Assembly: GCA_035293105.1 (NCBI GenBank)
Contig: DATDOV010000100.1
Location: 90,857 to 154,856 of the forward strand
Reading direction: 5' to 3'
DNA: 64,000 nt
DNA from: Blastocatellia bacterium
GTDB lineage: Bacteria; Acidobacteriota; Blastocatellia; UBA7656
This document shows, piece after piece, positions 520 to 54,147 of this stretch. The notes below the pieces were generated by a model. That model saw only the letters and a program-made list of their open reading frames with translations. It had not been told where the DNA came from and searched no databases. Positions within the stretch are counted from its first letter, which is position 1, and each line of letters begins with the position of its first letter. The position numbers and the translations under genes were made by a program.

Positions 520-530
520 CGAGGTGACGA

Positions 531-1616: not shown

Positions 1617-1648
1617 GCGCCGCTGTGAAACCAGTGGGCGCTTTTCAT
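1616..1648 (+). terminator. rho-independent terminator-like hairpin after NHL gene
   Basis: AAGCGCC-gctgtgaaaccagt-GGGCGCTTTTC sits immediately after the TAA stop at 1614-1616. Confidence 0.5.
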
Positions 1649-1671
1649 AATCTCGGAAAGGAGAAGCTGTA

Positions 1672-2385: not shown

Positions 2386-2440
2386 CAACGGTGCAGAGGT
2401 GTGAGGGGCAGGCCTCACACCTCGCTGTTGCTCCAGAGAG

Positions 2441-3550: not shown

Positions 3551-3565
3551 TCAAAGAATGTGTGA

Positions 3566-5437: not shown

Positions 5438-5438
5438 C

Positions 5439-6524: not shown

Positions 6525-6527
6525 TCT

Positions 6528-11504: not shown

Positions 11505-13481
11505 TCAACGTTGAGAGTCTACAGGTCGCACCGGTCCGCCCGTCACGATCTCCCTTATCTTTCTCACTTCCGCTTCAGCCTTATTCAACTCGTCGTAGGA
11601 AGATTTGCGGAGGGCGAGGTAACTATTGCAATCCACGGGCAATCGATACGCGCTCTTCAGACGATTTATTTCGCCTTCGGCCCTCAATCCTTGTTGCTCT
11701 ATTTGTCTCGACAGTTGTCTCAATCTGTCCACCTCAGCGACCATTCTCATTTCATCCCGTCCATTGGTTGCATCGGCTATTGCCTCGTCTCTTTCTTGCT
11801 CAAGCGCCGCCGCCTTGGTAGTCAGCGCACTCACCTTGCCGTCAAGTTCTTTCCTGGCCTTCTCAGCCTCCTGGTACGCCGCCAGCGCTGCCTCCTCCGC
11901 AAACAATGCGTCCGCACGCCCCATTTCCGCAAACGCCCTCGCATCGTCGGCTTTCTTCACGAGGTCGTCCCGCACCGCCTTCTCGTACGCGGCCTGACCC
12001 CTCGCCTCGATTTCTTGACGTGCCGAGTCACGATCAGCAAGCGCATCTCTAACTTCGGTTCTAGCGATAGCCGCCTCAGTCCTAGTTTGAATCACCAGGA
12101 CGGCCACTGAAGCTATTACGAGAGCGGCCATTAGACAGATACCAACCAGCCAGTACAACCGTCGTCTCCTGACTCGGTCCGCTTCCTCAAGTCTACGGCG
12201 CTCGATCTCCGCCAGTCGTTCCACCTTCTTTTGACTTATCCATGGAACGAGAAACTCACTGACGATGTCATAGAAGTAGGTATTGTACCGTCGTTCCCGA
12301 CGGACAAGTTTGGTGTCCTCCACCAAGGCATTCAAAGCAGCTTTCAACCGGCCTTCAGGGATGTTCTCGCCGTCAGGCGCCCGACCGATCAGGTCTTCTT
12401 CGGAAACGACGTTGCGTGTACCGGCGGCGGTTACGAGGCGGCTTAGCAAAGCTACAGCCGGGTCTCGGAGATCATCTGCACGACGCGAGCTGTCGCTGGC
12501 TAACCGGGCACCGGAAAGCAACGCCATGGCCGGACTCGGCGGATCACCTGCAAGCTGGTTAAGAGCGTCCGATAGATAGTCCTCCAGAAGACCCTGAACG
12601 CCTCTCTGTTTGAACAAGCCTCCGGGGTCGGGGGACTCCCACAGCCTTCGGCAGGCAATCTGAACCTCGGACAAGCTGAGCGCCCCGGATTCCGTTCGCT
12701 CATCAATGGCGGCTGCCAAATCCTGAGCCAGTTCCGGTGAGAGTTCCGCCCTAAAGCTCCCTGGGAACCTCTCGAAAGGTCCACGGATAATGTTATCCAA
12801 TGCCTTCGTACGCAGCGTCGTTAGCCGCAGGTATTGATCCGGCAATTCGGGGCAGAGCACGAATAACTTCGTGAGCTTCGCCAGGTAGTCTTCCCTGAAT
12901 GTGAACAGGAGCTTCACCCCAAGCCGCGGGTCGCGCATCAACTCGACCACAGCCTGGAGAATCGCCTGCTGCGCGGCTTGAGCTTCTTTCAAAGCCTCGC
13001 CTCGCGGGGCTTCCTCGAACAAGGTGACGAACTCTTCAAACTGGTCGAAGATCAACAACGGTTGCCGGTCGGCCGCTGCGGCCCTGAGCTTCTCCATGAA
13101 AGCGCTAATAGAGAGCACGATGCGCGGGCGCTCCTCGTCATCGGCGAAGACCGACGGCAGGAACGGTGCCTTGCCGTCGCCGGGAATCGAGATGCGCTCG
13201 ACGACGATCTCCTCATTGCGGGGAGGCTGAACGCGTAGTCTTTCCGGCGTAAAGCCCTCGGTGATCGTCGCTGGGATCAATCCCGCGTTGATCAGAGAAG
13301 ACTTGCCCGAGCCCGATTCGCCGTAGAACAACACGCCGCGATAGATCGTGACGTAGCGCAGCAGCTTCCTAGTTTCTTCCTCTCGCGCGAAGAAGATCGC
13401 TTGATCGGCATAGCGGAAGGAGTCGATTCCGCGGTAGGGCGACTCGGGCAGCGAAAGCGGCGCGGTTGCAGAGCTTGTCAT
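11505..13481 (-). CDS. nSTAND/NACHT-like P-loop NTPase with C-terminal transmembrane helix and long coiled coil
   Basis: The N-terminus PYRGIDSFRYADQAIFFAREEE...VLFYGESGSGKSSLINAGLIP (Walker A) and Walker-B-like LLIFDQFEEFVTLFEE are the pattern of bacterial STAND NTPases usually fused to WD40/TPR. Here aa ~447-470 form a TM helix (LYWLVGICLMAALVIASVAVLVI) followed by ~190 aa of heptad-rich coiled coil. The start overlaps the stop of the upstream SIR2 gene (ATGA). Confidence 0.75.
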   Translation of the reverse strand: MTSSATAPLSLPESPYRGIDSFRYADQAIFFAREEETRKLLRYVTIYRGVLFYGESGSGKSSLINAGLIPATITEGFTPERLRVQPPRNEEIVVERISIPGDGKAPFLPSVFADDEERPRIVLSISAFMEKLRAAAADRQPLLIFDQFEEFVTLFEEAPRGEALKEAQAAQQAILQAVVELMRDPRLGVKLLFTFREDYLAKLTKLFVLCPELPDQYLRLTTLRTKALDNIIRGPFERFPGSFRAELSPELAQDLAAAIDERTESGALSLSEVQIACRRLWESPDPGGLFKQRGVQGLLEDYLSDALNQLAGDPPSPAMALLSGARLASDSSRRADDLRDPAVALLSRLVTAAGTRNVVSEEDLIGRAPDGENIPEGRLKAALNALVEDTKLVRRERRYNTYFYDIVSEFLVPWISQKKVERLAEIERRRLEEADRVRRRRLYWLVGICLMAALVIASVAVLVIQTRTEAAIARTEVRDALADRDSARQEIEARGQAAYEKAVRDDLVKKADDARAFAEMGRADALFAEEAALAAYQEAEKARKELDGKVSALTTKAAALEQERDEAIADATNGRDEMRMVAEVDRLRQLSRQIEQQGLRAEGEINRLKSAYRLPVDCNSYLALRKSSYDELNKAEAEVRKIREIVTGGPVRPVDSQR

Positions 13482-14538: not shown

Positions 14539-16230
14539 TCAACGCTTCGCCCGCAGGACAACCACTTTGTCTTCGCCTTCCTTGACCTCGAAGTCTATGC
14601 GGTCGTACTCGCCCTTCTGCCTCCAACCGGTGACGCTGTATCGCCCGGGAGTAAAGGGGTACTTTTCGTTCGAGTTCCTGAAGATTCTCTCATTGCCGTT
14701 GGCTGTGCTGGCGAAGCACCGATCGGGTTTATCCGGCGTGCCATCGGCCTTCTGATAGACGAAGGTCACGTGGCCGACCGGAACCGTGATGTCGAAGTGC
14801 TGCTGCTTCTGGTCGGTCACCACGATCCCGGTCTTGACGTACGGTGTCAGAGCGTTGGGCAAACGCACATCGTAGACGCCGGGAAGCACAGTCTCGCCCA
14901 GCGTCATGTGCACGCGGTACCTCTTCTCGCCGTTTTGCCATAGCTCGTAGTTCTCGCGAAACCATATTCCCGAGCCCGACGCCACCATCTTCACCGTCAC
15001 CCGAACCGTGTGGGCCATGCCGAAGACGATTTCTTTGCGTTCTCCGGCGGCGATTGTTGCCGTCGTCGAGAGATCATTCGCAGCGTTAGGCCGCGCGCGA
15101 AACTCGTAGGCGCCTTCATCGACGAAGACCTCATCAAAATAGCGGAAACTGAAGACCTCTTTGCCGTCTTGAAAAGCATGGACCAGCGAGCCGCGCTGAT
15201 CCTCGCCCTGGTCGGTGAATCGCGCTCTCACGGTTGGCGGCGTGGGGACCTCGACCTTGACCACAGTCGCGCCGGTATCCGCGACTTGGACGCTCTTGGT
15301 CACGGGCCTGTACATATTGCCGTTAGCCGTCGGAACCCCGGCCGTCAGCGTGTACTGGCCGGCCTCGACGCGGCCGGCGCTGCTGCTTGTAACTTTGTAA
15401 AGGTCCCGGCCCTCGCGCGAGAGAACGCCGACGACTCTTATGCGGCTCCCCGCTGCGTCGACGCCCTGTAACCAGAATCCCGCGAGGGCTGCTTGCGCTT
15501 GCTTATGGATCTTCCCCATTTCATCAGCCAGCGTTAAAGCCGACTGGGCATCGTGATACTGGGTGCCTGCTGCGTTGGAGATGCACTCGAGGGTCTGTCG
15601 CTCTTTTTCGCCGAGTCCGAAGCCGACGACGTGAACCTTGATCTTCACGTTTTTGTTTTTCCACTCGCGGACCAGCGCGCACGGGTCGGCTTCGCAAGAC
15701 TCGATGCCGTCGCTGATGAGGATAATCTCGCCGGGCCGGTCGCCGAAATCTTTGAGGGCCTCAGCGAGGCTGTACGTTATCGGCGTTCTGCCAATCGCGT
15801 TTATTCGCTTGATCGACTCCTTGAACTGAGCGACGACTTTTTCGGGAGGGCCGAAGGGAATTAGAAGCTCAGAATCCGCGCAATCCTCTTTTCTCCGGTG
15901 GCCGTAGACTCGAAGCGCGAGGTCGTAACCGGGAAAATCCTTGGCGACGAAATCCTGGAGTACCTGTTTGGCCGCATCGATCCGGCGCGACTTGTCGGGC
16001 AAACGCGCCATCATCGAGCCCGACGCGTCGAAGATGATATAGATGCCGGCCGCTTTGTTTTCCTGCTGGGCAGCTTGAGCCGCAGAGTCGGGTGAGGGGG
16101 CATCATCGCTGCGCTTCTCAACTACCGGTGTAACCACCGCCGGGTTGTTGCCCGCGTCGCCTGACGGCGGAGCGGTGGAGCAACCGGCGATGGCGCATAC
16201 GACCGCGATGTAAATCAGTTCAATCTTCAT
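14539..16230 (-). CDS. von Willebrand factor A (vWA) domain lipoprotein with C-terminal beta-rich domains
   Basis: Lipoprotein signal MKIELIYIAVVCAIAGCS. vWA MIDAS-type start IYIIFDASGSM...LISDGIESCEADPC...VHVVGFGL. Confidence 0.7.
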   Translation of the reverse strand: MKIELIYIAVVCAIAGCSTAPPSGDAGNNPAVVTPVVEKRSDDAPSPDSAAQAAQQENKAAGIYIIFDASGSMMARLPDKSRRIDAAKQVLQDFVAKDFPGYDLALRVYGHRRKEDCADSELLIPFGPPEKVVAQFKESIKRINAIGRTPITYSLAEALKDFGDRPGEIILISDGIESCEADPCALVREWKNKNVKIKVHVVGFGLGEKERQTLECISNAAGTQYHDAQSALTLADEMGKIHKQAQAALAGFWLQGVDAAGSRIRVVGVLSREGRDLYKVTSSSAGRVEAGQYTLTAGVPTANGNMYRPVTKSVQVADTGATVVKVEVPTPPTVRARFTDQGEDQRGSLVHAFQDGKEVFSFRYFDEVFVDEGAYEFRARPNAANDLSTTATIAAGERKEIVFGMAHTVRVTVKMVASGSGIWFRENYELWQNGEKRYRVHMTLGETVLPGVYDVRLPNALTPYVKTGIVVTDQKQQHFDITVPVGHVTFVYQKADGTPDKPDRCFASTANGNERIFRNSNEKYPFTPGRYSVTGWRQKGEYDRIDFEVKEGEDKVVVLRAKR

Positions 16231-16355
16231 CGGACCCTCTGTTCGCTTGTCTTCCTTCGCAGTGGTTCGTCTCCGAATCAGTAGGCGCGACAACTTGGTG
16301 GATAAAAGCCAGTGTGAATAAACCGTAGTCGCGGCGCCGGCAAGCCCGCCGGGAA

Positions 16356-23204: not shown

Positions 23205-26051
23205 TCACCGGTGATTGCCGGCCAGTACGAACGGCGCCCAGTAACGAGGGTGGGAGAGCTCTCTGCGGTTGCCCGCTTCGACGAACGGAAGCTCGCCTCT
23301 GATCATCGCCCTCTGGGTCTCGGCGAGGGCCTCGCTCGTTTCTTTCGTTTGCAGGTTCTTGTAGAAAGCCTTCATGAACTCGGTCGTTGGCCGGTCGCTG
23401 ACGGGCAGAAGGCTGGCCATCACGCTTCTGGCTCCCGCGTGCAGGAACGCTTCGATCAGTCCGATGCGGTCTGCTTCGGCCAGCTCGTCTCCGGTGGATG
23501 AATAGCTCTGACCGGTTTGGCAGGCCCCGAGCGTCACAAGCTCCGCTTCGAGCCCCAGATCGAGTATTTCGCGGGCCGTCAGGTTGCCATCGTCTTCGAC
23601 TGTGCTCTGGAGCTTCAGCCGGCTCAGCAAGGGCATCTCGGGCTCGGAAACGGCGTGCGTGGCAAGATGAACGTACTTGAAGTGCGGAGCAAGCTGTTTC
23701 AACTCGCTCTCGCTTGCTTCCTGATCGCTGCGCGTGTCGCCCCCGAACATCCCGGCCACGGCGCGAGCTTCTTCAACGGCGAACTCAAGCGGCAGTAGCT
23801 CCGGTTCGTCCGATTCGTTCCTCCCGAAGCTGAGCATTCCGAGCTGCGGTCGAGTTGTTTGTCGCTGAGGTTGACGTGAAACGTTCGCCAGGTAGGTCGC
23901 GGACGGCGTGCGGAATATCGAATAGTCTTCGACCAGAAACCTGATTCCATCTCCTTCTGCCCGAGCCAGCGCAGCAAAGGGAAGATCGTGAAGCGAGCCA
24001 AATGGAACGACTCCCAGCCGGCGAATGCCCGCGAGCGAGCCTGTTCGCTCGATCGGCTCAATCAACGAGCGATGCAGATCTTCGGCAACGGGCTTCCAGT
24101 CAAATCCCCCTCGATCATCCTGCGAACCATCGAATATCAGCGAGCGGAATAGCTTCACCTTGGACGACAGGTTGGTCCTGGTGACCGGTAAAGCTACGCT
24201 TGCACAAGTCGATCGAGTGATGACAAGCGCGAAGACCTTCTCGCCCGCGAACACGTATTCGACCAGCGCGGTGTCGGGGCTCAAAGCGCTCTGCGCAGCT
24301 TCAAGCTCGACCGGCTGCGCTTCGCGAACAAGCCTGTATCGTGGCTCGTTCAACACCGATCTCAAAGTCTGGTCTTCATAGTCGCTGTAGGCCCGCCGAA
24401 GCCGCGCTCTCATCTCAGCGCTGCCTTCGCCCTTGAAGCTGTTGAAAGCCTTTTCGATCCGCGACAGCGCCTCTTTTTCCTCGCCAGCAGGCCGCGCGTT
24501 GGATTTCTTCTCGCTCAGTTGCAGCACGAGATTTCTGAATGAGCTGTATCTCAACTGTTCAAGGAAGCGAAAGGCCAACTCCAGCTCCGGGCCGTTTCCT
24601 CCCCGGCCAAGCAAGAGTTCGAAGGTGCGGTCATACAACATTCTGCTCTGGCCCGAGACGAGTATCGTCCCGCTCGATCGAAACCGCTCCGATTGCATCT
24701 CTGCTGCTTCGGCCAGATAACTCAGAGCCTCGGTGCGCCGGCCCTGAAGCTCCATGAACTCGGCCATCAACAAACTGTGGCCAAGCGAGCGATCAGCGGC
24801 CTCCTCTTTCGCTCTGATGGTTTCGGCTTGGTCGAACAGCTCGCCCGCCTTCGGCATGTTGCCAAGCTGCATATACGCTTCCCCCAGGAACATCGTCGTC
24901 GTTCCGGTCGATCTGATGTCGGGATCGCCTATCAACCGCTCCAGCTCGAGCACCTTCTCAAAGTACTGGCGGGCAGTTTCAGCGTCCCCTTTGAGCAAGT
25001 GGCAATACGCCAGGCCGCCCAGGTACCGCTTGGCGTGAAATGGATTCTCGCGCTCTCGCTCGAGCACGCGATTGAGCAATCCGATAACCCGGTCGTACTC
25101 ACCCAGGCGCGTGTAGATGCTCGCCAGCACGTCTTCTTCTTTGGGGCCCAGGCCGTATCCGATTTGCCGGCTGATCTCGACGCTCTTCAAGTAGTATTCA
25201 CGCGCTTTTCTGTAATTGCCCATCCCCTCATACGAGCTGCCGAGGAAAAAGTAGGAATCGCAAAGCCCCGCCTTGTCGCCGACACGGAGCTTAAGCTCGA
25301 CGCTTTCATTCTGATATTTGAAGAACTGAAACAAGTCGCCTTTCAGCGAATGAACCAGCGCGATGTTGCAAAGCGTGATTGCGGCGCTGCGCCACTCGCC
25401 CAGCCGTCTGTATATCTCAAGCGCGGGATCGTAGTAGTCGGCAAGCGGGCGGTCGAGTTCACCCTTGAACCACCAGTAGACGACTCCGATATTGCGAAGC
25501 GCGTCAGCCTCGATGATCTCGTCGCCGGTTTCGCGTCCGATTACGAGCGCCTCCCCGAGGTGCTCGAGCGCCTTGTCCGACTTGCCTTTGAGGTGATAGA
25601 GCACGCGGCTCAGATCGATCAGCGCGTGGCCTTCAATCCGCTGGTCTCCGATCTCTCTCGCGAGTTCCAGGCTCTGGATGTGACGTTGAACGGCCGCATC
25701 GGCTTCGTTGGAATTAAAATGGTTGACTCCCGCGGCGTTGAGCACGCGAGCGCGCAGCCGCGCGTCGAGCGGCTCGTCGATCAGGCGGTGAATCTCCTGT
25801 TGAGACGCGGTGAATTCGCCGCGAAGCTGGTGGCACAGGGCTATCTCAAACCGCACGTCCGCGGCGCGCGGGTCGAGCATTAGCGCCCATCGCAGTCTCT
25901 CAAGGGCATCGTCGAGCCGCCACTCACGTTTGGCTTCGATGGCCTGAGCGAAGAGGTAGCTCGCGACGGGCTTGCGCATGAGGACCCCGGCTGCCGACAG
26001 GGTCACCGTTGCCGCGATGATTATGAGCCACCTGCGGATTCTTGAACTCAC
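23205..26051 (-). CDS. CHAT-domain (caspase-like) protein with N-terminal TPR array
   Basis: C-terminal HLATHAVSE...LVTLGACQTGQS supplies the His/Cys dyad of the CHAT peptidase fold. Many TPR-like repeats in the N-terminal ~600 aa. GTG start. Confidence 0.75.
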   Translation of the reverse strand: MSSRIRRWLIIIAATVTLSAAGVLMRKPVASYLFAQAIEAKREWRLDDALERLRWALMLDPRAADVRFEIALCHQLRGEFTASQQEIHRLIDEPLDARLRARVLNAAGVNHFNSNEADAAVQRHIQSLELAREIGDQRIEGHALIDLSRVLYHLKGKSDKALEHLGEALVIGRETGDEIIEADALRNIGVVYWWFKGELDRPLADYYDPALEIYRRLGEWRSAAITLCNIALVHSLKGDLFQFFKYQNESVELKLRVGDKAGLCDSYFFLGSSYEGMGNYRKAREYYLKSVEISRQIGYGLGPKEEDVLASIYTRLGEYDRVIGLLNRVLERERENPFHAKRYLGGLAYCHLLKGDAETARQYFEKVLELERLIGDPDIRSTGTTTMFLGEAYMQLGNMPKAGELFDQAETIRAKEEAADRSLGHSLLMAEFMELQGRRTEALSYLAEAAEMQSERFRSSGTILVSGQSRMLYDRTFELLLGRGGNGPELELAFRFLEQLRYSSFRNLVLQLSEKKSNARPAGEEKEALSRIEKAFNSFKGEGSAEMRARLRRAYSDYEDQTLRSVLNEPRYRLVREAQPVELEAAQSALSPDTALVEYVFAGEKVFALVITRSTCASVALPVTRTNLSSKVKLFRSLIFDGSQDDRGGFDWKPVAEDLHRSLIEPIERTGSLAGIRRLGVVPFGSLHDLPFAALARAEGDGIRFLVEDYSIFRTPSATYLANVSRQPQRQTTRPQLGMLSFGRNESDEPELLPLEFAVEEARAVAGMFGGDTRSDQEASESELKQLAPHFKYVHLATHAVSEPEMPLLSRLKLQSTVEDDGNLTAREILDLGLEAELVTLGACQTGQSYSSTGDELAEADRIGLIEAFLHAGARSVMASLLPVSDRPTTEFMKAFYKNLQTKETSEALAETQRAMIRGELPFVEAGNRRELSHPRYWAPFVLAGNHR

Positions 26052-38577: not shown

Positions 38578-38584
38578 AACGAAA

Positions 38585-38840
38585 GGATTTAGGAGCTAGG
38601 ATTTAGGGGCTAGTAGTTAGTAGGGGGCTAGGATCATAGAATTGATGCGCACGGCATCGTCGGCACCAATCCTCGTTGTAGGAAATCCTTGCTCACGGAG
38701 GCTCTCGATCCACGAGATTTTCCCAATCGTCCGTTGCGCCCCCCCTCGCGGCCACTAACAACCGCTCACTCCTAGCTAGATCCCAGTCCTAAATCCTAAA
38801 TCCTAAATCCTAAATCCTAAATCCCAGTTCCTAAATCCTA
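38585..38840. repeat. (CCTAAAT)n heptamer tandem repeat with an inverted (AGGATTT) arm
   Basis: 38788-38838 holds cctaaat x5-6. 38585-38635 holds aggatttagg units in opposite orientation. Both flank a ~150-bp unique segment. Confidence 0.6.
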
Positions 38841-39680: not shown

Positions 39681-39808
39681 TGAATTGGGTCATTGGGTCA
39701 TTGAGTCATTGAGTCATTGAGTCATTGAGTCATTGGGTCGTTGATTCATTGGGCCATCGCTTCATTGTTTCATCAGATTCACTGGCTCAATGACCCAATG
39801 ACTCAATC
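39681..39808. repeat. (GTCATTGR)n octamer tandem repeat (~11 units) plus downstream inverted partial copy
   Basis: gggtcattgggtcattgagtcattgagtcattgagtcattgagtcattgggtcgttgattcattggg... with inverted ctcaatgacccaatgactcaatcc at 39786-39808. It abuts the start codon (39674-39676) of 38831..39676. Confidence 0.65.
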
Positions 39809-45686: not shown

Positions 45687-46124
45687 ATGAAGAACAAACT
45701 CGTGCCGCTTGGCGTGATCTTGGGAATCGCTGTTGCGGCAACACTCGGCCTGACGGGTGTCTCAGCGTCGGGGCAGGGAACCGCGCAAGCCGAGAAACCA
45801 AAACCGGCCCCTACAGCCAAACCGAAGCCCCGGCCCAAGAAAAAAGTCCAGGCGATGCGCGGCGTGCCCAAGGGTGTTGGCGCGTGTTTGGATCATCTGG
45901 TCCAAATGGCGTCCGCTGATCCGCTGATCGACTACGCCGGTCATCCGGAGGAAATCGTCAACAATGGTTTGCTCTGGAACAACCCAAAATCCAGGTGCTC
46001 GATAGGCAGCGACGCGGCCCTCAGGAAGAAGGTCCTGGATATGGCCGCCGCCTGGCGCCGAAAGGACTCTGCGTCCGTTCGCTCGCTTTTGGCGGAGATC
46101 AAGGGCGCGGCGCCACAAAAGTAG
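45687..46124 (+). CDS. small secreted Lys/Pro-rich protein (hypothetical)
   Basis: Start MKNKLVPLGVILGIAVAA with a GGAGG RBS. The longer ORF from 45468 lacks an RBS. Confidence 0.45.
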   Translation: MKNKLVPLGVILGIAVAATLGLTGVSASGQGTAQAEKPKPAPTAKPKPRPKKKVQAMRGVPKGVGACLDHLVQMASADPLIDYAGHPEEIVNNGLLWNNPKSRCSIGSDAALRKKVLDMAAAWRRKDSASVRSLLAEIKGAAPQK

Positions 46125-46240
46125 TTCCGCCTGATAGTGCCGGTTCGGACCGGTCCTTGACCGTGGTGTCGAGCGTGCCTCAGCAGCGATCACTCGATTC
46201 GACTGTCGTCGGGCAGCCGTGTTTGTCAAAATAGGATCGA

Positions 46241-47266
46241 ATGGTGACGAGGGTTTTAGTTGCGGGGTTGATAGCGCTGGCCGGACTGTGTCTGGCTGGA
46301 TGCGGGATGCTGGGCGGGGATCAACAGATCGATGAAGGCGTCGTCATCGCGCCGAAGCTCAAGATAAAGTCGTCAACGGCCATGGTCGCGCTCGATCTCG
46401 CGGAACTGAAGCGCGGAGACCGGCTCGAGATACTTGAACAAACCGAAGTGAAGACGCCGACCAGGACTGACGAATGGTATAAGGTCCGGACAAAGGCGAA
46501 GGACCCGATCATCGGATGGGTCGAGGCTCGTTACGTCATCAACAAAGCCGTCGTCGACAAGATCGATGATCTGTACGAGAAGTCGAAGCAGACCCCGTCA
46601 CAGGGCATCGGCCGGTTGAAAGTCCAAACGAAGCTTCGCATCGAACCCGGCGGCGACGTTGCTACCCACCTGAGCCGCGGCACCTACGTTGACATCGTCG
46701 GCAAAGCGCGCACGATCGTGAAACCCGAGAAACAGCAAACCAGCGAAGGTAACGATGAACCGGCGGAGGAACCCGAAGCTCGCACGGTTCTCTGGTATCA
46801 GATTCGTCTCGGCGATTCCGATGTGCTGCGCGCGGGCTGGGTGGGCGCGCAACAGGTGCAGCTAGACGTGCCCGATGAGATTCTCCACCTGGAGGGCGAG
46901 GGCCGGAGGTTCACCGGCTGGATCGTGTTCGATCAGACGAGAACAAAAAAGGGCGAGCCCAGGAATACCTACATCGGATTGATGAAGAGCCTCAGCACCG
47001 AAGGCCCGATTGATTTCACCCGAATCTGGGTGTTGAACTACGCCCCGGACGAGGGCCGCTATATCGGCTCATACATCGAAGACAAGTTGCGCGGCATGTT
47101 GCCGGTCACCATCAGCCCTAGAGGGTTTACGATTCACGAGCTGGACGAGAACGACAAGCCGGTGCCGGTCCAATACGAAGCGATTCGCCGCGATCCCGCC
47201 CACCTGGTTGTGCATCGCCTCGCGCCGAAGTTCCAGTTCAAGCCGGTGAAAAAAGTGAAGCGATAG
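46241..47266 (+). CDS. lipoprotein (hypothetical)
   Basis: LAGC lipobox MVTRVLVAGLIALAGLCLAGC. Confidence 0.5.
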   Translation: MVTRVLVAGLIALAGLCLAGCGMLGGDQQIDEGVVIAPKLKIKSSTAMVALDLAELKRGDRLEILEQTEVKTPTRTDEWYKVRTKAKDPIIGWVEARYVINKAVVDKIDDLYEKSKQTPSQGIGRLKVQTKLRIEPGGDVATHLSRGTYVDIVGKARTIVKPEKQQTSEGNDEPAEEPEARTVLWYQIRLGDSDVLRAGWVGAQQVQLDVPDEILHLEGEGRRFTGWIVFDQTRTKKGEPRNTYIGLMKSLSTEGPIDFTRIWVLNYAPDEGRYIGSYIEDKLRGMLPVTISPRGFTIHELDENDKPVPVQYEAIRRDPAHLVVHRLAPKFQFKPVKKVKR

Positions 47267-47327
47267 TTCTTTCGCGACGCTGAGAGATCGAGGCCGCATA
47301 ACCAATCGATAACCCAGGGCGAGACCT

Positions 47328-48110
47328 CTAGCCCCGAACAATCTCAATCAATTTGCCCAGGCTCCGGTCGACTGTTTCAGCCAGCAACTCAACCATCGGT
47401 TTGGTATTCGCCGTATAGCCTTCTTCAACGGCTGCGCGGTAGGACGGAACCGTGTCGGGACTGATGATTATCGGCGGCAAGCCGACCCGCACGGTGAAGA
47501 GGGTCGCGGCCAGGAGCGCAACGGCTGCGTTGGCGACCTCGAACGGCTGAAGCTCGGTCAACCGCAGTAAGACAATGGCGGCCTGCTCAATCGGATTCAA
47601 TTCCGTGAACGACTCGGCGGCAAACCACTGGCACGTCGTCTCTAGTAGCACCGGCACGTGTTCGCCGGCGGGTGGTTTGACCGGACGAGTCGGTTCACCC
47701 GCGCCCGTGCGCAAACCCGCCGAGGCGCTGGTTAGAGCTTGATGCAGTCTCAAGAGCAGGGAAGGGGTCAGGGCGGCGGTGGCCCCGGATGATCGAGCAA
47801 ACGAATCAAGCAACCGAACCGCGGTGAGCATTCGCGCGATTGCCTGTTCCCCGTCGCTCAATTGTGAGCCGTCCCGTGAGGGGCCGTAAGCAACTCGAGC
47901 TACCTCCTCCTTCGAGACGCCGACACCTTCCACGAGCAACGTTGCATGCGCAAACCCGACTTCGGTCCAGCGGATCAATCGCTCGTGCTGTTCTGCCGAA
48001 GGTCTAAGCGCGACGAGTTCCTTGTGTTTCTGGTTGACGCGGTTGATCCACTCGTACGTCGGGAGTTGGAACAGAATCGGAGGCCGCCGTGAATCGGGAG
48101 GTCGCTGCAT
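47328..48110 (-). CDS. hypothetical protein
   Basis: ORF only. A weak Fic-like HPFxx motif (LQPFEVANAAV) lacks the full HxFx[DE]GNGR signature. Confidence 0.4.
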   Translation of the reverse strand: MQRPPDSRRPPILFQLPTYEWINRVNQKHKELVALRPSAEQHERLIRWTEVGFAHATLLVEGVGVSKEEVARVAYGPSRDGSQLSDGEQAIARMLTAVRLLDSFARSSGATAALTPSLLLRLHQALTSASAGLRTGAGEPTRPVKPPAGEHVPVLLETTCQWFAAESFTELNPIEQAAIVLLRLTELQPFEVANAAVALLAATLFTVRVGLPPIIISPDTVPSYRAAVEEGYTANTKPMVELLAETVDRSLGKLIEIVRG

Positions 48111-48294
48111 ACGTTGTCAATCTTGAAGGGGGCACGCTTGTGAGTCAACGCGCAGACCACACTCGCCGCACCCGCGCTTGACACCAACCCACTTCGCACG
48201 GGACACTTGGATCGCAATCGTAGCCCGTTGCAACGCAGGCATACTGGCGGGCATCAAGCGGGCATCAACGATCTTCGGCAGCCCGCGGCTAACC

Positions 48295-49128
48295 ATGCAC
48301 ACTGAGCGCGAAACCCGAAAGCAGATCGTCGAAATAGGCCGGGCCATCTACGAGAACGGCTTTGTCGCGGCGTCCGACGGCAATATCAGTGCGAGACTCG
48401 AAGACGGCAACATCCTCACGACGCCCACCATGGTGTGCAAGGGGAAGATGACCGAGGATATGCTCGTGCTGGTCGATATCGACGGCCGAAAGCTGCGCCG
48501 GGATGAGCGCAATCCGTCGTCGGAATTCGCAATGCATCGCGAGATCTACCGGCTGCGGCCCGACGTGCACGCCGTCGTCCATGCCCACCCGCCATTCGGA
48601 ACCGGCTTCGCGGTTGCTAACGTCCCGCTGGACAAGCCGCTGCTTTCCGAAGTAATCCTGACGCTCGGCTGCATTCCGCTGACGGCTTACGGTACGCCGT
48701 CGACGACCGAGTTGTCAGAATCGCTGACGCCGTTCATTCCCCACCACGACGCGCTGTTGCTCGCGAATCACGGCGCCGTGGCTTATGGCCCGGATCTGGA
48801 GACGGCTTACGCGCGAATGGAGACGCTCGAGCACTTCGCTAAGATCACTTTGATCGCGCGGCTGGTAGGCAGGCCGAAGGAACTGCCCGCCGAGGCAATT
48901 GAAAAACTGCTTGACGTACGCGAGCGGGCGGGGTATATGCCCGCCGAGGCGCGAAGCTGTCAGGCTTGCGGGTTTGTGAAAGGCCACGCCTCGACGTGCG
49001 CGCTCGGCGCCGCTACAGAGTCGTGGCGCGCTGGCAACGGAGATGAATCCGTCACCCTGACGCGCCGGGAGCTGACGGCGTTGATAACCGAAGCGGCGCG
49101 GCTCGTCGCGCGCGAGATGAAGAGTTGA
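48295..49128 (+). CDS. class II aldolase/adducin-family enzyme (fuculose/rhamnulose-1-P aldolase-like) with C-terminal extension
   Basis: GNISARL, metal-binding HAVVHAHPP...LLANHGAVAYG...H motifs. An ~85-aa C-terminal tail ends in the amphipathic helix LTRRELTALITEAARLVAREMKS. ATG at 48295. Confidence 0.8.
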   Translation: MHTERETRKQIVEIGRAIYENGFVAASDGNISARLEDGNILTTPTMVCKGKMTEDMLVLVDIDGRKLRRDERNPSSEFAMHREIYRLRPDVHAVVHAHPPFGTGFAVANVPLDKPLLSEVILTLGCIPLTAYGTPSTTELSESLTPFIPHHDALLLANHGAVAYGPDLETAYARMETLEHFAKITLIARLVGRPKELPAEAIEKLLDVRERAGYMPAEARSCQACGFVKGHASTCALGAATESWRAGNGDESVTLTRRELTALITEAARLVAREMKS

Positions 49129-49170
49129 GCCGTCACTGTGAAACGTCACTACTAGCGACATGGAGGAGAG

Positions 49171-49461
49171 ATGATGGAAGCGCTTGGAATGATCGAGACC
49201 AAGGGTCTCGTGGCAATGATAGAAGCCGCCGATGCGATGGTTAAGGCCGCAAACGTCACGCTCATCGGTTATGAGAAGATCGGAGCGGGACTCGTGACCG
49301 CCATCGTGCGCGGCGACGTCGCGGCGGTAAAGGCCGCCACGGATGCCGGCGCGGCGGCAGCGCGGCGAGTGGGCGAACTAGTCAGCGTTCACGTAATACC
49401 GCGCCCACACGCCGCGGTGGACGAGAACATGCCGGTGACTTACGACTCGCGCGCGAAGTAG
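49171..49461 (+). CDS. bacterial microcompartment shell protein BMC-H (PduA/CcmK/EutM family)
   Basis: [60 protein letters not shown] is the canonical Pfam00936 signature. Confidence 0.85.
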
Positions 49462-49572
49462 TGAGGCGCGAAACATGAGTTGCGATGCGCGATCGGGACG
49501 GTGGCGACTCGCTGAAGCCCGACCGGGACTCACGAACTCCGCATCGCGAATTAGGAATCTTCCTATTCGATT

Positions 49573-49845
49573 ATGATCCTTGCTCGCATAGTTGGAACGG
49601 TGGTCGCAACGCGGAAGGACGAGCGACTGCATGGCCGTAAGCTCCTCGTCGCGCGGCTGGTCGGTGTCGACGGCAAGGACGAGAAGGGTCATCTGATTGC
49701 CGTCGACACGGTTGGGGCCGGCGTGCGTGAAGTCGTCCTCATCGTCCAGGGCAGTTCGGCGCGCATGGCTTTCGGTTGCAAAGAGTGTCCGATCGACGCC
49801 GCCGTCGTCGGCATCGTAGACACGGTCGAGGTGAGTGATGCGTGA
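49573..49845 (+). CDS. bacterial microcompartment vertex protein BMC-P (EutN/CcmL/PduN family)
   Basis: MILARIVGTVVATRKDERLHGRKLLVARLV...VAVDTVGAGVREVVLIVQGSSARMA...DAAVVGIVD matches the Pfam03319 pattern. Confidence 0.8.
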   Translation: MILARIVGTVVATRKDERLHGRKLLVARLVGVDGKDEKGHLIAVDTVGAGVREVVLIVQGSSARMAFGCKECPIDAAVVGIVDTVEVSDA

Positions 49846-49918
49846 GAAGAACACGATGGAGAATCATTGTTCATGATTCCTCATTCATTACTCACCATTC
49901 ATCGTTTATCATTCATCC

Positions 49919-51652
49919 GTGAGCACCATCCGAATAGCACTCGCGCAGATCAACCCGACGGTAGGTGACCTCGCTGGGAACGTCGATCTCGCCCTCGATT
50001 ACGTCCGCCGCGCTCGCGAGCTTGAAGCCGAGATCGTCGCCCTTCCGGAACTCGCCCTCACCGGATACCCGCCGGAAGACCTCCTGCTCAAACCGCATTT
50101 TGCGCGCGACTGCCGCGCGGCGCTCGACCGGATTATACCCGCGACCTCGGACATCGTGGCCATCATCGGATTCGTCGATGGCGACGGGTCGGCCATCTAC
50201 AACGCCGCGGCGGTCATCGCGAACGGGCGGCTCGTGGACATCTACCACAAGTCTTTCCTTCCCAACTATGGCGTCTTTGACGAAGAACGCTATTTTCAAT
50301 CGGGCACGCGGTGTCCGGTATTCACGCTGGGCGACGCTCGCGTCGGCGTGAACATCTGCGAAGACATCTGGTATCCCGGCGGCCCGACAAGGCTTCAGGC
50401 GCAGGCCGGCGACGCCCATCTGATCGTTAACATATCGTCATCCCCGTATCACGCCGGCAAGACCCTGGACCGCGAGCGAATGCTGTGCACGCGTGCCGAG
50501 GACAATGCGGTCGCGGTGGCCTACTGCAACCTGATCGGCGGACAGGATGAGCTGGTCTTCGACGGCAACAGCCTGATAATCGGCGAATCGGGGAACATCA
50601 TCGCGCGCGGCCGGTCCTTCGAGGAAGATCTGGTCGTCGCGGACCTCAACGTCGAGCGCGTCTTCGCCGAACGGCTTCGCGACCCGCGGCGTCGGCGCGA
50701 AAAAGTAGACGTCGATGCGGACGATTCGCTCTACTTCATCAATATCGATGTCGCGCGTCGCGGCGAGCGCCCGGCTCTGCCTGCGAGAGTCGTCGAACAG
50801 TTGGAGGAGCCTGCCGAAGTGTACAAGGCTCTCGTCGTCGGGACGCGTGATTACGTGCGAAAGAACGGCTTCGACAAGGTGTATCTGGGGCTGTCAGGCG
50901 GGATCGACTCGGCGCTGACGGCGGTGATCGCGGCGGATGCTATCGGCCCCGAAAACGTGAACGCGGTCTTCATGCCTACGCGGTATTCCGCGTCGGAGAG
51001 CGGCCGGGACGCCCGGCTGCTGGCTGAGGCTCTAGGAATCGGCTTTCAGGTCATCCCGATCGAAGAGACCCTCAACGCGTACTCCAAGATGCTGGCGCCC
51101 GCGTTCGATGGGCTTCCCGAGGACACGACGGAAGAGAACATTCAGGCTCGCATCCGAGGGAACATCTTGATGGCATTGTCGAACAAATTCCAGGGCCTAG
51201 TGATTTCAACAGGTAATAAGAGCGAGATGAGTGTTGGATACTCGACGCTGTACGGCGATACGGCCGGCGGATTCGCATTGTTGAAGGACGTGCCGAAGAT
51301 GCTCGTCTACAAGCTTGCCGATTACGTCAACGCCCGACCGCCGCGCCCCGTGATACCGGAGTACGTCATCAAGCGCCCGCCCTCAGCGGAGCTGCGCGCC
51401 AACCAGACCGATCAAGACACGCTGCCGCCCTACGCCGTGCTGGACGCGATACTGGAAGCCTATGTTGAGAAGGACCTCAGCGCGGAGTCGATCGTCGCGA
51501 TGGGTTACCCGGCGGAAACGGTTCAATGGGTCATCGCGCGAGTCGACGCCGCCGAGTACAAGCGCCGCCAGTCGCCTCCCGGGATCAAGATCACTCCGCG
51601 CGCATTCGGCCGCGACCGCCGCATGCCGATCACAAACAAGTATCACGGCTGA
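49919..51652 (+). CDS. nadE: glutamine-dependent NAD+ synthetase
   Basis: N-terminal CN-hydrolase (nitrilase) domain, then a C-terminal NAD-synthase PP-loop VYLGLSGGIDSALTA. GTG start. Confidence 0.85.
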   Translation: MSTIRIALAQINPTVGDLAGNVDLALDYVRRARELEAEIVALPELALTGYPPEDLLLKPHFARDCRAALDRIIPATSDIVAIIGFVDGDGSAIYNAAAVIANGRLVDIYHKSFLPNYGVFDEERYFQSGTRCPVFTLGDARVGVNICEDIWYPGGPTRLQAQAGDAHLIVNISSSPYHAGKTLDRERMLCTRAEDNAVAVAYCNLIGGQDELVFDGNSLIIGESGNIIARGRSFEEDLVVADLNVERVFAERLRDPRRRREKVDVDADDSLYFINIDVARRGERPALPARVVEQLEEPAEVYKALVVGTRDYVRKNGFDKVYLGLSGGIDSALTAVIAADAIGPENVNAVFMPTRYSASESGRDARLLAEALGIGFQVIPIEETLNAYSKMLAPAFDGLPEDTTEENIQARIRGNILMALSNKFQGLVISTGNKSEMSVGYSTLYGDTAGGFALLKDVPKMLVYKLADYVNARPPRPVIPEYVIKRPPSAELRANQTDQDTLPPYAVLDAILEAYVEKDLSAESIVAMGYPAETVQWVIARVDAAEYKRRQSPPGIKITPRAFGRDRRMPITNKYHG

Positions 51653-51763
51653 GGAACCATCGAACGCCGACTGAGCGCGCTTGAGCGGGCCCTCGTCGCT
51701 CGCGCGCCGGTGCGAACGGTCTGCTCTTGAGGTCCGGGTGGCCTAGAAGCTTGTTGGAAGGAT

Positions 51764-51850
51764 CCTTCGTAGTAACGGATTCATTCGTTCCCACGTTGGC
51801 GAGAGGCGTATTCCTCAACAAACAGAACGAATGAACTCGTTACTACGAAG
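51764..51850. terminator. long inverted repeat (26-nt arms) between convergent genes; putative bidirectional terminator
   Basis: ccttcgtagtaacggattcattcgttc ...35 nt... gaacgaatgaactcgttactacgaag. Confidence 0.5.
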
Positions 51851-51871
51851 ACGCGTGATTCCGAGAGCCTT

Positions 51872-52870
51872 TTAGCGCGGCTCGGGAACAAGTTCAACCT
51901 TGCCTGCGGCACGGTAACGTCGCACGAAGAACCGGATCACGAGTCCCATCGGCAGCAGGATCAACACAGCGACCGGAACCAACACGATGATCAAGCGAAT
52001 GAGTCCGGTGACAATCGAAGCCGCAACGTCGACGCCGTCGCCAAAAGCTTGCTTGATGTCGTGGCCAAAACCTGCGGTGGTCGCGGTGACTAGCGGCGCC
52101 GCTGGCTGCAGAGTAACTGTGATCGTCGAGTAGCTCGATTGATTCTGAAGGAACCGGCGGCGCCCTTCGAGTCGCTCGATTTCAGTGCGGACGTTGGCAA
52201 TCTCGTTTTGCACCTCGAGCGCGTCGGAGACCTTCCGCGCCTGCTTCATGATTTCGAGGAACTGAGCCTCGAGTGCTTTCTTGGTGCGGATGCGGGCTTC
52301 GAGGTCGATGAATTCCTCGGTGACGTCCTGACCGGTGACCTTCTCTTGAACCACGCGCTGACCGACGTTGCGGATTCCTTCGAGGGCGCGGTTGAACTGG
52401 GCGGCCGGGACGCGAGCGACGAGGGTCACGACCTGATTGGGTTTCGATTGGCCGGCGCCTGCGCCCTGTCGGGAATCAGAGGAAACGATGAAGCCGCCAA
52501 GGATCTCCGCGATTGACGTGATCTTGCGTTGTCCCTCCGCGGCCGAGTCGATCTCGAGGCTCAACTCGGCGTTGCGAATGATCTTCCGGTCATCAGCGTG
52601 AGTTGCGGCCTGAATGGTTCCGAGATCGGCCTGGAGGTCAGATTGCACCGCCCTCCCGCCGACCGTTGTCGTCACCGCCGCCGACAAGGCACCTTCAGCA
52701 CCAACCTCTCTACGCAACGTCGCGTCAAGCTCGACGTTCTCTGAGGCGGGGCGGGCTGACGACGTCTCGTTGTTGCCCCCGGCAGGTCCGGCGGAGCTCT
52801 TGCTTCTAGTCTCATTACAGCCGGAAAACGCGAGTACCGTTCCCAAAACTACTGCCGTTGCAAGTTTCAT
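51872..52870 (-). CDS. lipoprotein with coiled coil and C-terminal TM segments (hypothetical, DUF4349-like)
   Basis: MKLATAVVLGTVLAFSGC lipobox. C-terminal hydrophobic helices. Confidence 0.5.
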   Translation of the reverse strand: MKLATAVVLGTVLAFSGCNETRSKSSAGPAGGNNETSSARPASENVELDATLRREVGAEGALSAAVTTTVGGRAVQSDLQADLGTIQAATHADDRKIIRNAELSLEIDSAAEGQRKITSIAEILGGFIVSSDSRQGAGAGQSKPNQVVTLVARVPAAQFNRALEGIRNVGQRVVQEKVTGQDVTEEFIDLEARIRTKKALEAQFLEIMKQARKVSDALEVQNEIANVRTEIERLEGRRRFLQNQSSYSTITVTLQPAAPLVTATTAGFGHDIKQAFGDGVDVAASIVTGLIRLIIVLVPVAVLILLPMGLVIRFFVRRYRAAGKVELVPEPR

Positions 52871-53045
52871 GTGTCACCTCCTCTGCTCCGCAACGCAGAT
52901 GGCCGGTGAATGTTCCTGGAACTCCGAGGGCTTTCGCGTCGGATGTGAAGGGCGGGATGCCGGCAGGGGTCCGATCCCAAATAAAAGAGGGCTATCGCGA
53001 TAGCCCTCAATCTCAGCAGCCTATGTTAATCGGCGGTTGGTTGTT

Positions 53046-53495
53046 CTACTTCTCGACGATGTCCTTCTTCAAACCCGCCAGCGCGGCGACCACTTCGTCC
53101 TGCTCCTTCTTCGGGACCTTGAACTGGTCGAGCGTCGCGCCGAGGTGCTTCACCGCGGTGTCCCAGTCCTTCTCGGTTATGCCGAGCCCTTTGTGGGCCG
53201 TCTTCATGTCGCGACCGATGTACACGCAAGGACCGCCCGTAGCCGCGCACAACTGATCGACGACGAGTTGACGGATTCTCATCTTGGAATTATCACTCGC
53301 GCCGATGAAGAAGCGGCCGAGGTCTTTGTCAGTCGCCAGCCGGGTGATGAATTCGTCGGTGACCGCCGCGAGCGCATCGTAGCCGCCGAGCCGTTTGTAA
53401 AGCGAGTCCCCCTTCATCTGAGCCGACACTGACGGCCCAAGCATGGAAAGGAAGAGTGCCGCGATTGAAACGTAAAGCGAGATTCTCTTATTCAA
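53046..53495 (-). CDS. truncated (2/2, group I-like) haemoglobin, exported
   Basis: LYKRLGGYDALAAVTDEFITRLATDKDLGRFF...GGPCVYIGRDMKTAHKGLGITEKDW matches trHb signatures (proximal His in HKGLGI). TTG start at 53495 with AAGGAGA RBS and signal peptide NKRISLYVSIAALFLSMLGPSVSAQ. Confidence 0.65.
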   Translation of the reverse strand: MNKRISLYVSIAALFLSMLGPSVSAQMKGDSLYKRLGGYDALAAVTDEFITRLATDKDLGRFFIGASDNSKMRIRQLVVDQLCAATGGPCVYIGRDMKTAHKGLGITEKDWDTAVKHLGATLDQFKVPKKEQDEVVAALAGLKKDIVEK

Positions 53496-54147
53496 TGTCT
53501 TGTCTCCTTTAAGGTGTTTCGAGTTAACATCACACAGGGCGAAAACAGTGCGAGTTCCGAATCCCATTTCCCGAAGATCAAGGGCACGTCCGACTCCGCA
53601 CTTCGCCGTGCCCGGACAGTACGGGACGGACCACCGGTTTGGATTGGTTCGGATGAAGCAACGAGTTACTTGCCCTGAAATGGGGAAGGGCACGACAAGC
53701 GGGACTGCTTCTCGTGCCCCAGGTTGAGCCTCCCCGGTTATCGGGCGACAACCGGATTACAGGCAGGGTTGAGGCTCATTCTCCTGAGCACGGGGAGGGG
53801 ATAGTCACCGCGCCCAGGATGTCAATGGCTGGCCAATGCAGGAACCAGCCGATACTGGCGGCATCGTTGCTTGAGCGGAAGGTCGCCGCCAAATACTAGT
53901 CCAAATCTCGTCATTACCCGTTACCCGACGATTCGTGCTATCAGTTCTGCATATCCCCTTCACCATTCATTGACGGAATCACCTTCGCAGTTTTTGCAGA
54001 CCGACAGAAAAAACTGAAAAAAACTTTGGTGGTGGATACTACGGGTGGGTAAGGCGGTTGTGTGGGCCTTATTGAGCCATCAGAAACAGCGCTAGCCCTA
54101 GGTCGGAAGATCGTGGATCAGAGTCGAGACCACGTCAGCAGAATAAT

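Follow-up and report, generated by a model that had tools for sequence, protein, structure and literature searches.

The locus described here raises the question of whether three adjacent genes represent a whole bacterial organelle, a new kind of organelle or a part of a known one. It occupies positions 48295-49845 of the 64-kb stretch of contig DATDOV010000100.1, from a soil acidobacterium of the class Blastocatellia, that was analysed (hereafter the window; the locus, its genes and its elements are given in window positions) and consists of three genes on the plus strand, encoding a class II aldolase-family enzyme, a hexameric shell protein of bacterial microcompartments (BMC-H) and a pentameric one (BMC-P). 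In an initial annotation, these genes were read as a minimal bacterial microcompartment (BMC) of no catalogued type. The three-gene locus is real, but its type has been on record since 2021, when ACI microcompartments were described (Sutter et al., 2021; PMC8217296). The locus is a variant of the ACI type, neither a new kind of organelle nor a plain member, and we consider it probable that we are dealing with the main locus, in reduced form, of an ACI-type organelle whose partners, if any, are encoded elsewhere.

A probable ACI-type main locus

The three gene calls pass curated hidden Markov model (HMM) thresholds by wide margins, with 168 bits against a cutoff of 22.2 for the aldolase (PF00596, amino acids 10-185 covered), 107.5 against 24.5 for BMC-H (PF00936) and 101.6 against 25 for BMC-P (PF03319); the enzyme and shell-protein calls of the initial annotation are correct. 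The BMC-H is also above the cutoff of the NCBIfam EutM equivalog (143.9 against 133 bits), and direct reading of its sequence reveals K25, a pore-loop region KIGAGL and a PRPH motif. It shares 84-90% identity with its counterparts in canonical triplet loci. The genes are co-directional and closely spaced as first described, with 42 bp between aldolase and BMC-H and 111 bp between BMC-H and BMC-P, and the next gene, nadE, follows after 73 bp (Table 1). Matching gene calls had been made independently on ENA ERZ27254861 k141_1929578, a 207-kb contig that contains the window, and on two further metagenome contigs, and the GC content across the region is unremarkable. As a BMC main locus has been defined operationally by at least one BMC-H (PF00936) and at least one BMC-P (PF03319) in contiguity (Sutter et al., 2021; PMC8217296), the two shell genes, 111 bp apart in one locus, constitute one.

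Table 1. Genes and sequence elements of the three-gene locus and its immediate surroundings, in window positions.
Feature	Position	Strand	Details
Fic-domain gene, divergent, upstream operon boundary	47328-48110	-	PF02661 E 4.4e-07
Promoter-/operator-like element TTGACA-N13-CACGGGACACTT	48178-48208	+	about 90 bp upstream of aldolase start codon
Class II aldolase/adducin-family enzyme, predicted cargo	48295-49128	+	277 aa; PF00596 E 2.6e-49
Cys/His motif CQACGFVKGHASTC, aa 222-235, linker between core and putative encapsulation peptide	48958-48999	+	CxxC...H...C clade-conserved
C-terminal encapsulation peptide-like helix DESVTLTRRELTALITEAARLVAREM, aa 250-276	49042-49122	+	motif common to ACI-type aldolases
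BMC-H hexamer shell protein	49171-49461	+	96 aa; PF00936 E 3.2e-31
BMC-P pentamer (vertex) shell protein, P1 orthologue	49573-49845	+	90 aa; PF03319 E 3.4e-29
nadE, glutamine-dependent NAD+ synthetase, downstream neighbour	49919-51652	+	NCBIfam NF010588 725 bits against 479

Regarding the type of locus, the ACI microcompartment as catalogued by Sutter, Melnicki, Schulz, Woyke and Kerfeld comprises 125 loci, exclusively from Acidobacteria and mainly from subdivisions 4 and 6. Its PF00596 aldolase, which the catalogue calls 'quite distinct', bears a C-terminal encapsulation peptide (EP) and is encoded next to BMC-H and BMC-P; three BMC-P genes, of the green, grey and orange clades, lie side by side; a hydroxyacid dehydrogenase is present together with unknown proteins, including a short one with an N-terminal EP and conserved cysteines; and, in 'most' ACI genomes, an aldehyde dehydrogenase (AldDh) with a near-C-terminal EP is encoded at a satellite locus far away from the main one (Sutter et al., 2021; PMC8217296). 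The window agrees with this description in its PF00596 aldolase, whose C-terminus has the motif, the amphipathicity and the predicted helix of an EP. It also agrees in its host: the closest genomes with matching 20-kb synteny are Blastocatellia metagenome-assembled genomes (MAGs), and Blastocatellia is a class of Acidobacteriota in the NCBI lineage, corresponding to subdivision 4 of the Acidobacteria.

Gene order can be compared as well. The order aldolase-H-P-P-P is found in distant loci of our genome scan (Vicinamibacterales, Bryobacterales/Solibacter-like and other Blastocatellia). In Pyrinomonadaceae, whose loci were obtained through a search for homologues of the second pentamer gene, the genes are ruvBA (minus strand), Rex, a small open reading frame (ORF), TonB_C, aldolase, BMC-H, the BMC-P genes P1, P2 and P3, a protein of 109-152 aa and LemA (minus strand), up to mraZ. 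The protein encoded after P3, which has an 83-aa counterpart in Vicinamibacterales, is the EP/Cys protein of the catalogue; it has an amphipathic helix at the N-terminus and the motif HPSQERF...C-x-(L/I)EP...C..C..C(S/R)xRG(F/H) at the C-terminus. The window's aldolase-H-P1 order matches the 5' portion of the canonical arrangement aldolase-H-P1-P2-P3(-small protein).

The canonical parts of a metabolosome were searched for across the window. A Pfam scan of every ORF of at least 118 aa found no AldDh (PF00171), no phosphotransacylase (PTAC, PF06130), no iron alcohol dehydrogenase, no 2-hydroxyacid dehydrogenase (PF00389/PF02826) and no second PF00936 or PF03319 gene. Similarly, tblastn with a PF00171 P5C dehydrogenase and a BMC-type EutE-like AldDh gave no window match, and with several BMC-P paralogues it returned the single BMC-P only. 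The early remark that no aldehyde dehydrogenase is in sight thus holds for all 64 kb, and the locus is not that of a canonical metabolosome, in which an encapsulated AldDh, PTAC and an alcohol dehydrogenase would be expected; none of these turned up within ±10 kb in any clade locus either. Of the ACI features, the hydroxyacid dehydrogenase is also lacking in the triplet loci examined from Pyrinomonadaceae and Vicinamibacterales, so that this feature is not universal. With the hydroxyacid dehydrogenase, the BMC-P triplet and the small EP/Cys protein, three features listed for ACI fail here, and for this reason the locus is not a plain member of the type.

Reduction to a single pentamer gene

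A scan of species-representative genomes with the aldolase yielded 80 loci (loci are designated L with a number), about 35 of which, nearly all titled Blastocatellia bacterium, encode an aldolase 74-85% identical to that of the window. This clade of about 35 genomes includes 'Chloracidobacterium sp. UBA7656' and Candidatus Onstottus arcticum and shares a gene order over about 20 kb: FGE-sulfatase, dCache, SH3, Fic (minus strand), aldolase, BMC-H, BMC-P, nadE, DUF4349 (minus), globin (minus) and BNR (minus). Within the clade, identity reaches 92-98% for BMC-H, 84-95% for BMC-P and 72-79% for NadE; the Fic gene is syntenic but fast-evolving (36-54%). Of note, L012, L025, L029, L041, L044, L046 and L048 have Blastocatellia-type synteny yet are titled 'uncultured Clostridia bacterium', probably as taxonomic mislabels.

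The window and every clade locus carry one BMC-P and not three. Compared with the nearest triplet locus, L039, the window protein is 70% identical to P1, 42% to P2 and 37% to P3. In a neighbour-joining tree, P1, P2 and P3 form three orthogroups, and all singleton BMC-P proteins group with P1, among them those of further single-P Blastocatellia lineages (L040, L041, L043 and L044). Judging from the catalogue, P1 would belong to the green clade, and its retention fits the rule that grey and orange BMC-P always occur together in triplets, the third type being often the sole pentamer (Sutter et al., 2021; PMC8217296). The initial annotation had counted one BMC-P correctly but missed the reduction, ACI loci normally carrying three. 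Regarding the small protein, an HMM built from eight EP/Cys proteins detects it after P3 in triplet loci (E 1e-19 to 1e-47) and gives no match below E 0.4 in the window or the clade loci, and neither the BMC-H/BMC-P nor the BMC-P/nadE spacer holds a plausible hidden small gene. The triplet is present in outgroups from three acidobacterial classes, so that the single-P state is most simply regarded as derived. The new point is a reduced ACI form that has become fixed in one deep Blastocatellia clade.

A shell made from two genes is physically plausible, since a single BMC-H and a single BMC-P of Klebsiella GRM2 (cmcC and cmcD) form closed pT=4 shells of about 25 nm that hold one cargo enzyme (PMC6971018). 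The earlier statement that H+P-only shells can self-assemble is borne out by this other system, in which the pair is sufficient.

Median dN/dS, taken over pairwise Nei-Gojobori estimates against the window genes, is 0.075 for the aldolase, 0.020 for BMC-H, 0.033 for BMC-P and 0.109 for NadE, with synonymous sites near saturation, and the reading frames are intact in all clade loci but L038, where the aldolase frame is split. The three genes are under strong purifying selection; because dN/dS values of 0.02-0.08 are seen at near-saturated synonymous divergence, they are functional and old in this lineage. That P2, P3 and the small protein have been lost relative to canonical loci could also be understood if the locus were a decaying ACI remnant and the compartment no longer made. 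This explanation is hardly credible: it is effectively refuted by such constraint across about 35 species, and conservation also extends to the shell motifs, the promoter element and the EP.

Another explanation of the reduction is that the same genomes also hold a complete Rex-TonB_C-aldolase-H-P1-P2-P3-small protein locus, of which the three-gene unit would be an accessory copy. The Fic/nadE neighbourhood indeed differs from the canonical ruvAB...mraZ site, and the aldolase peptide patterns used for the scan (e.g., VVHAHPPF) would let Pyrinomonadaceae-type aldolases (AVCHAHPPH) escape. For that reason it is weak evidence that none of the assemblies behind the 80 loci contributed a second aldolase locus. 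All three genes are, however, selected as strongly as a sole copy would be expected to be, and sister lineages have single-P loci at the canonical ruvA- or Rex-linked site, which shows reduction in place and not duplication. A protein search with the P2 of L039 placed none of its best 120 clusters on a known clade contig and is uninformative about a P2 in the same genome; the P2 homologues looked up belong only to canonical Pyrinomonadaceae loci of other assemblies. On this evidence, a satellite duplication appears very improbable.

It may also be asked whether the three genes need partners at all. If P2, P3, the small protein and an encapsulated AldDh were truly lost, the aldolase and its shell would be a whole, self-contained organelle outside the metabolosome scheme. 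Within ±10 kb of about 33 clade loci we found no other BMC gene, P2 and P3 included, no small EP/Cys protein and no EP-bearing ORF, and the two tblastn queries detected no AldDh within ±10 kb of any clade locus; the 64 kb of the window hold none of these either. Moreover, single-P loci recur in other Blastocatellia lineages (L040-L047), green-type BMC-P is often the sole pentamer and the AldDh satellite is reported for 'most' ACI genomes and not for every one (Sutter et al., 2021; PMC8217296), while H+P shells are sufficient in vitro (PMC6971018). Local absence nevertheless says little about an enzyme that in ACI is distant from the main locus by definition, and ACI parts are scattered in other genomes, as with the H-PPP cluster of Pyrinomonas that has no adjacent aldolase and the EP-aldolases of Acidoferrales-like genomes that have no nearby shell genes. 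We therefore hold a self-contained organelle to be unlikely. In its fullest form, this would be the smallest natural ACI compartment, with no encapsulated AldDh genome-wide, confining a single C-C lyase or decarboxylase reaction that is possibly NAD-tuned through co-transcription of nadE, a proposal that seems to us equally doubtful. A search with the BMC-type AldDh of L083 was uninformative, its best 120 clusters being Gemmatimonadota- or Latescibacterota-like only, with none on a known clade contig. The AldDh of L054 was considered as an ACI partner and rejected as an ordinary puu-like aldehyde dehydrogenase without EP.

The tagged aldolase-family enzyme

For the predicted cargo, 'aldolase' is a family label only. 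The initial description as a class II aldolase stands as an assignment to PF00596 and does not extend to a specific aldolase identity. Indeed, no NCBIfam equivalog cutoff is reached: the best curated model is OtnC, a 3-oxo-tetronate-4-phosphate decarboxylase (137 bits against a cutoff of 250), with FucA models close behind (76-109 bits, the best at 109 against 264) and RhaD at 47 against 170. Because the FucA and RhaD cutoffs (L-fuculose- and rhamnulose-phosphate aldolases) are missed, the substrate need not be fuculose or rhamnulose phosphate. The nearest solved structures are the 'aldolase' 6VOQ/6VOP and FucA, and a HMMER alignment to PDB 6VOQ shows the same conserved blocks. E77, H96, H98, H159 and N30 are invariant among 44 relatives, and the first four align with the catalytic Glu and the zinc-binding His of FucA. 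An AlphaFold model of the enzyme was dropped for fold search on account of its mean pLDDT of 57 and shallow alignment, and its terminal helix alone was used. By analogy with the PVM and GRM5 systems, the most likely chemistry would be a lyase reaction that forms dihydroxyacetone phosphate (DHAP) and releases an aldehyde.

The C-terminal extension reported at the outset is present and runs for about 80-90 aa beyond the Pfam domain, which ends at residue 185. It consists of a conserved helix (ELPAEAIEKLLDVRERAGYM), a Cys/His segment (CQACGFVKGHASTC) and a terminal segment (DESVTLTRRELTALITEAARLVAREM), which is the standard architecture of an EP and suggests that the enzyme is targeted into the shell. 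The terminal motif (V/I)TLTRxEL..LI.EA is common to the aldolases of all retrieved ACI lineages across Acidobacteriota and is present even in Acidoferrales-like genomes without a shell gene within 10 kb. The most amphipathic 18-residue stretch of the whole enzyme falls in this segment (µH 0.62), and AlphaFold predicts a confident helix at residues 257-276 (pLDDT 84-89) after a low-confidence linker (223-252). An EP HMM matches no other ORF of the window, and as a hunt for further cargo it matched only aldolases in the window and 95 loci.

The Cys/His segment of the linker has the form CxxC-x6-H-x3-C and is kept across the clade, partly in other Blastocatellia ACI aldolases and as CxxC...C in those of Pyrinomonadaceae; C225 and G226 are invariant among the 44 relatives. 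A metal or redox site is possible, metal binding being only a guess. This cysteine-containing linker is reminiscent of the small, separately encoded ACI protein, whose C-terminus is rich in cysteine.

Taken as the reduced main locus of an ACI-type organelle, the genes could work as follows. The conserved promoter would drive aldolase, BMC-H and BMC-P, possibly with read-through into nadE. BMC-H would tile the facets of a small polyhedral shell and the lone P1-type BMC-P would cap its vertices, while the amphipathic C-terminal EP would draw the class II aldolase-family enzyme inside. There, the enzyme may interconvert a ketose phosphate or a related compound with DHAP and a reactive aldehyde, and, in line with other ACI systems, a partner oxidising this aldehyde, if there is one, would have its gene at a distant locus.

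Several points weigh against this account. Three listed ACI features are absent from the window, namely the BMC-P triplet, the EP/Cys protein of about 80-120 aa and the hydroxyacid dehydrogenase. OtnC scores slightly above FucA and no curated equivalog is reached, so that aldehyde production is a supposition. No AldDh has been tied to the clade genomes, so metabolosome-style chemistry is an assumption, and a second canonical locus in the same genomes would be compatible with the scan, given its blindness to Pyrinomonadaceae-type aldolases. Finally, the known ACI microcompartments themselves appear without experimental characterisation in the literature found, our search having returned no paper on ACI function or on Blastocatellia microcompartments.

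Surroundings of the locus and related microcompartments

The operon begins after the divergent Fic gene, as first proposed, and a clade-conserved promoter-like element is located there. Alignment of about 30 clade genomes gives the consensus GCTTGACA-N12-CACGTGACACTTTGA, 80-110 bp upstream of the aldolase start. The element is the sole match in the window, where 0.1 would be expected by chance, and its 15-mer has exactly one match per locus in 16 clade loci, always just 5' of the aldolase. Its layout suggests a -35 box and a weak -10 region that a palindromic CACGTG operator overlaps; CACGTGACAC would be a candidate regulator target. No Rfam match was obtained in 46000-53000, the intergenic folds of the operon region are no better than those of shuffled sequence and intrinsic terminators are predicted neither within the operon nor behind it.

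In several other Blastocatellia lineages, a gene for a Rex-type repressor (PF06971 and PF02629) lies co-directionally and directly 5' of aldolase-BMC-H-BMC-P (L087 6230-7051, L088 4526-5209, L090 5200-5907 and L092 2689-3399), and Rex is also found just upstream of the aldolase in L040, L043, L044 and L047. The searchable supplementary text of the 2021 catalogue does not mention Rex. ACI compartments may thus respond to the NADH/NAD+ ratio. Upstream of the clade aldolases, the Rex operator TGTGA-N6-10-TCACA was not found.

Regarding nadE, the initial annotation had seen in its adjacency a possible link to the organelle, and one could imagine that the synthetase is part of the system and supplies or regulates a compartment pool of NAD(H). 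Of the 33 clade loci reaching beyond BMC-P, 32 have the gene adjacent and on the same strand, in some cases at a distance of only 5-7 bp; no terminator is predicted in between; and with the NADH-sensing Rex directly upstream in sister Blastocatellia, ACI loci stand repeatedly beside NAD-related genes. This adjacency, however, needs no functional reason, because the whole neighbourhood of about 20 kb is syntenic in the clade. Between 5 and 1363 bp (median 81) separate BMC-P from nadE, and this spacer is filled by 7-8 nt tandem repeats specific to each species; in L018, the 5 kb downstream contain no nadE, and nadE is adjacent in no other ACI lineage examined. NadE itself aligns end to end with its family model, with neither a terminal extension nor a match to the EP HMM, and its dN/dS of 0.11 is the ordinary constraint of a housekeeping enzyme. 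The proposed link is therefore weak, and an NAD-linked role seems improbable. nadE is probably a syntenic neighbour, possibly co-transcribed where the spacer is a few bases long, and not part of the organelle, the Rex of sister lineages being a curious coincidence beside it.

The spacer repeats are of some interest in themselves. In the window, short tandem repeats of 7-8 nt are found in intergenic spacers at 49846-49918 (between BMC-P and nadE), 38584-38620, 38776-38840 and 39684-39807; they are CATTCAT-like, TCCTAAA (7.7 copies) and ATTGAGTC (8.5 copies). Other species have ACGGACT, CTGACCA, GACTTCT and GGACAAA repeats at the same spot. The repeat unit changes between species and its position upstream of start codons is kept.

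Elsewhere in the window, positions 31-8423 hold a cluster in which genes for two NHL beta-propeller proteins and for a SurA-like chaperone are interspersed among those for multihaem c-type cytochromes (Paired_CXXCH, cytochrome c7/c3-like). This may be an extracytoplasmic electron-transfer module; on a related contig (L096), a nitrate-reductase-delta-like chaperone and a cytochrome c precede the cluster. Within 15 kb of one another lie, all on the minus strand, genes for an nSTAND1 NTPase (11505-13481), a VWA-domain protein (14539-16293) and a TPR-CHAT protease-like protein (23205-26051), whose domain types occur in conflict or signalling systems. A truncated (bacterial-like) globin, PF01152, is encoded at 53046-53693 (minus strand); its longest ORF has an N-terminal extension of about 95 aa, and the metagenome gene call of 149 aa indicates that the true start is probably internal.

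The loci retrieved also show how variable ACI-type arrangements can be. In the cultured species Pyrinomonas methylaliphatogenes (L084, CBXV010000008.1, 8118-10925), a class V aminotransferase gene, BMC-H, three BMC-P genes and the small EP/Cys protein form a shell cluster without an adjacent aldolase, and ACI parts have evidently been shuffled between lineages. In Acidoferrales/Sulfotelmatobacter-like MAGs (L063-L081), full ACI-type EP aldolases at about 10001-10750 adjoin glutamate dehydrogenase and have no shell genes within ±10 kb, which leaves two possibilities, shell genes located far away or a different role for the tag. In Bryobacteraceae/Solibacter-like loci (L050-L062 and L075), a tandem pair of class II aldolase paralogues is encoded ahead of BMC-H and the three BMC-P genes, with no small EP/Cys protein detected after P3.

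In soil, ACI microcompartments rank among the most abundant of the predicted bacterial organelles, and the reduced form bears on a puzzle that is open for many BMC types, namely why three pentamer paralogues are kept when a shell needs only twelve pentamers. Triplet and single-P1 loci with orthologous aldolase, BMC-H and P1 provide a natural contrast within one class. Moreover, the three-gene unit is small enough to be synthesised and expressed as a whole, which makes shell assembly, EP targeting and substrate directly testable. Should the clade genomes contain no AldDh, they would offer a natural minimal BMC outside the metabolosome paradigm; should they encode one elsewhere, the system would be an ordinary dispersed ACI system.

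Compared with known systems, the locus is closest to the canonical ACI type, with which it shares the acidobacterial host, an EP-tagged PF00596 aldolase directly 5' of a BMC-H with standard motifs and of BMC-P, a main locus without AldDh, PTAC or BMC-T, and orthology of both the EP motif and the aldolase-H-P1 order. Unlike canonical ACI loci, it has only P1 of the triplet, lacks the small EP/three-Cys protein and the hydroxyacid dehydrogenase, and lies in a Fic/nadE neighbourhood instead of between ruvAB-Rex and LemA-mraZ. According to the catalogue, the class II aldolases most similar to that of ACI are those of HO/MIC3-type microcompartments (Sutter et al., 2021; PMC8217296). These systems, from Haliangium ochraceum and relatives, differ by an N-terminally EP-tagged EutE-type AldDh and by BMC-T and/or acetate kinase, none of which is found in the window. 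A HO/MIC-like relative showing the complete core of an aldolase metabolosome is L083 (1-3972 of the Gemmatimonas MAG contig CAYRZX010000007.1), with a EutE-type AldDh bearing an N-terminal EP, two BMC-P, an aldolase and acetate kinase; its aldolase, 45% identical to that of the window, has a C-terminal helix and is encoded next to the BMC-P genes. The fucose-rhamnose BMCs of the PVM and GRM5 types share a PF00596 aldolase as encapsulated signature enzyme but represent complete metabolosomes, equipped with AldDh, PTAC, a kinase and more than one shell paralogue. Finally, the engineered minimal shells made from GRM2 cmcC and cmcD (PMC6971018) have the same two-component inventory; whereas those are laboratory subsets of larger loci, the two-gene shell set of this Blastocatellia clade appears natural and conserved.

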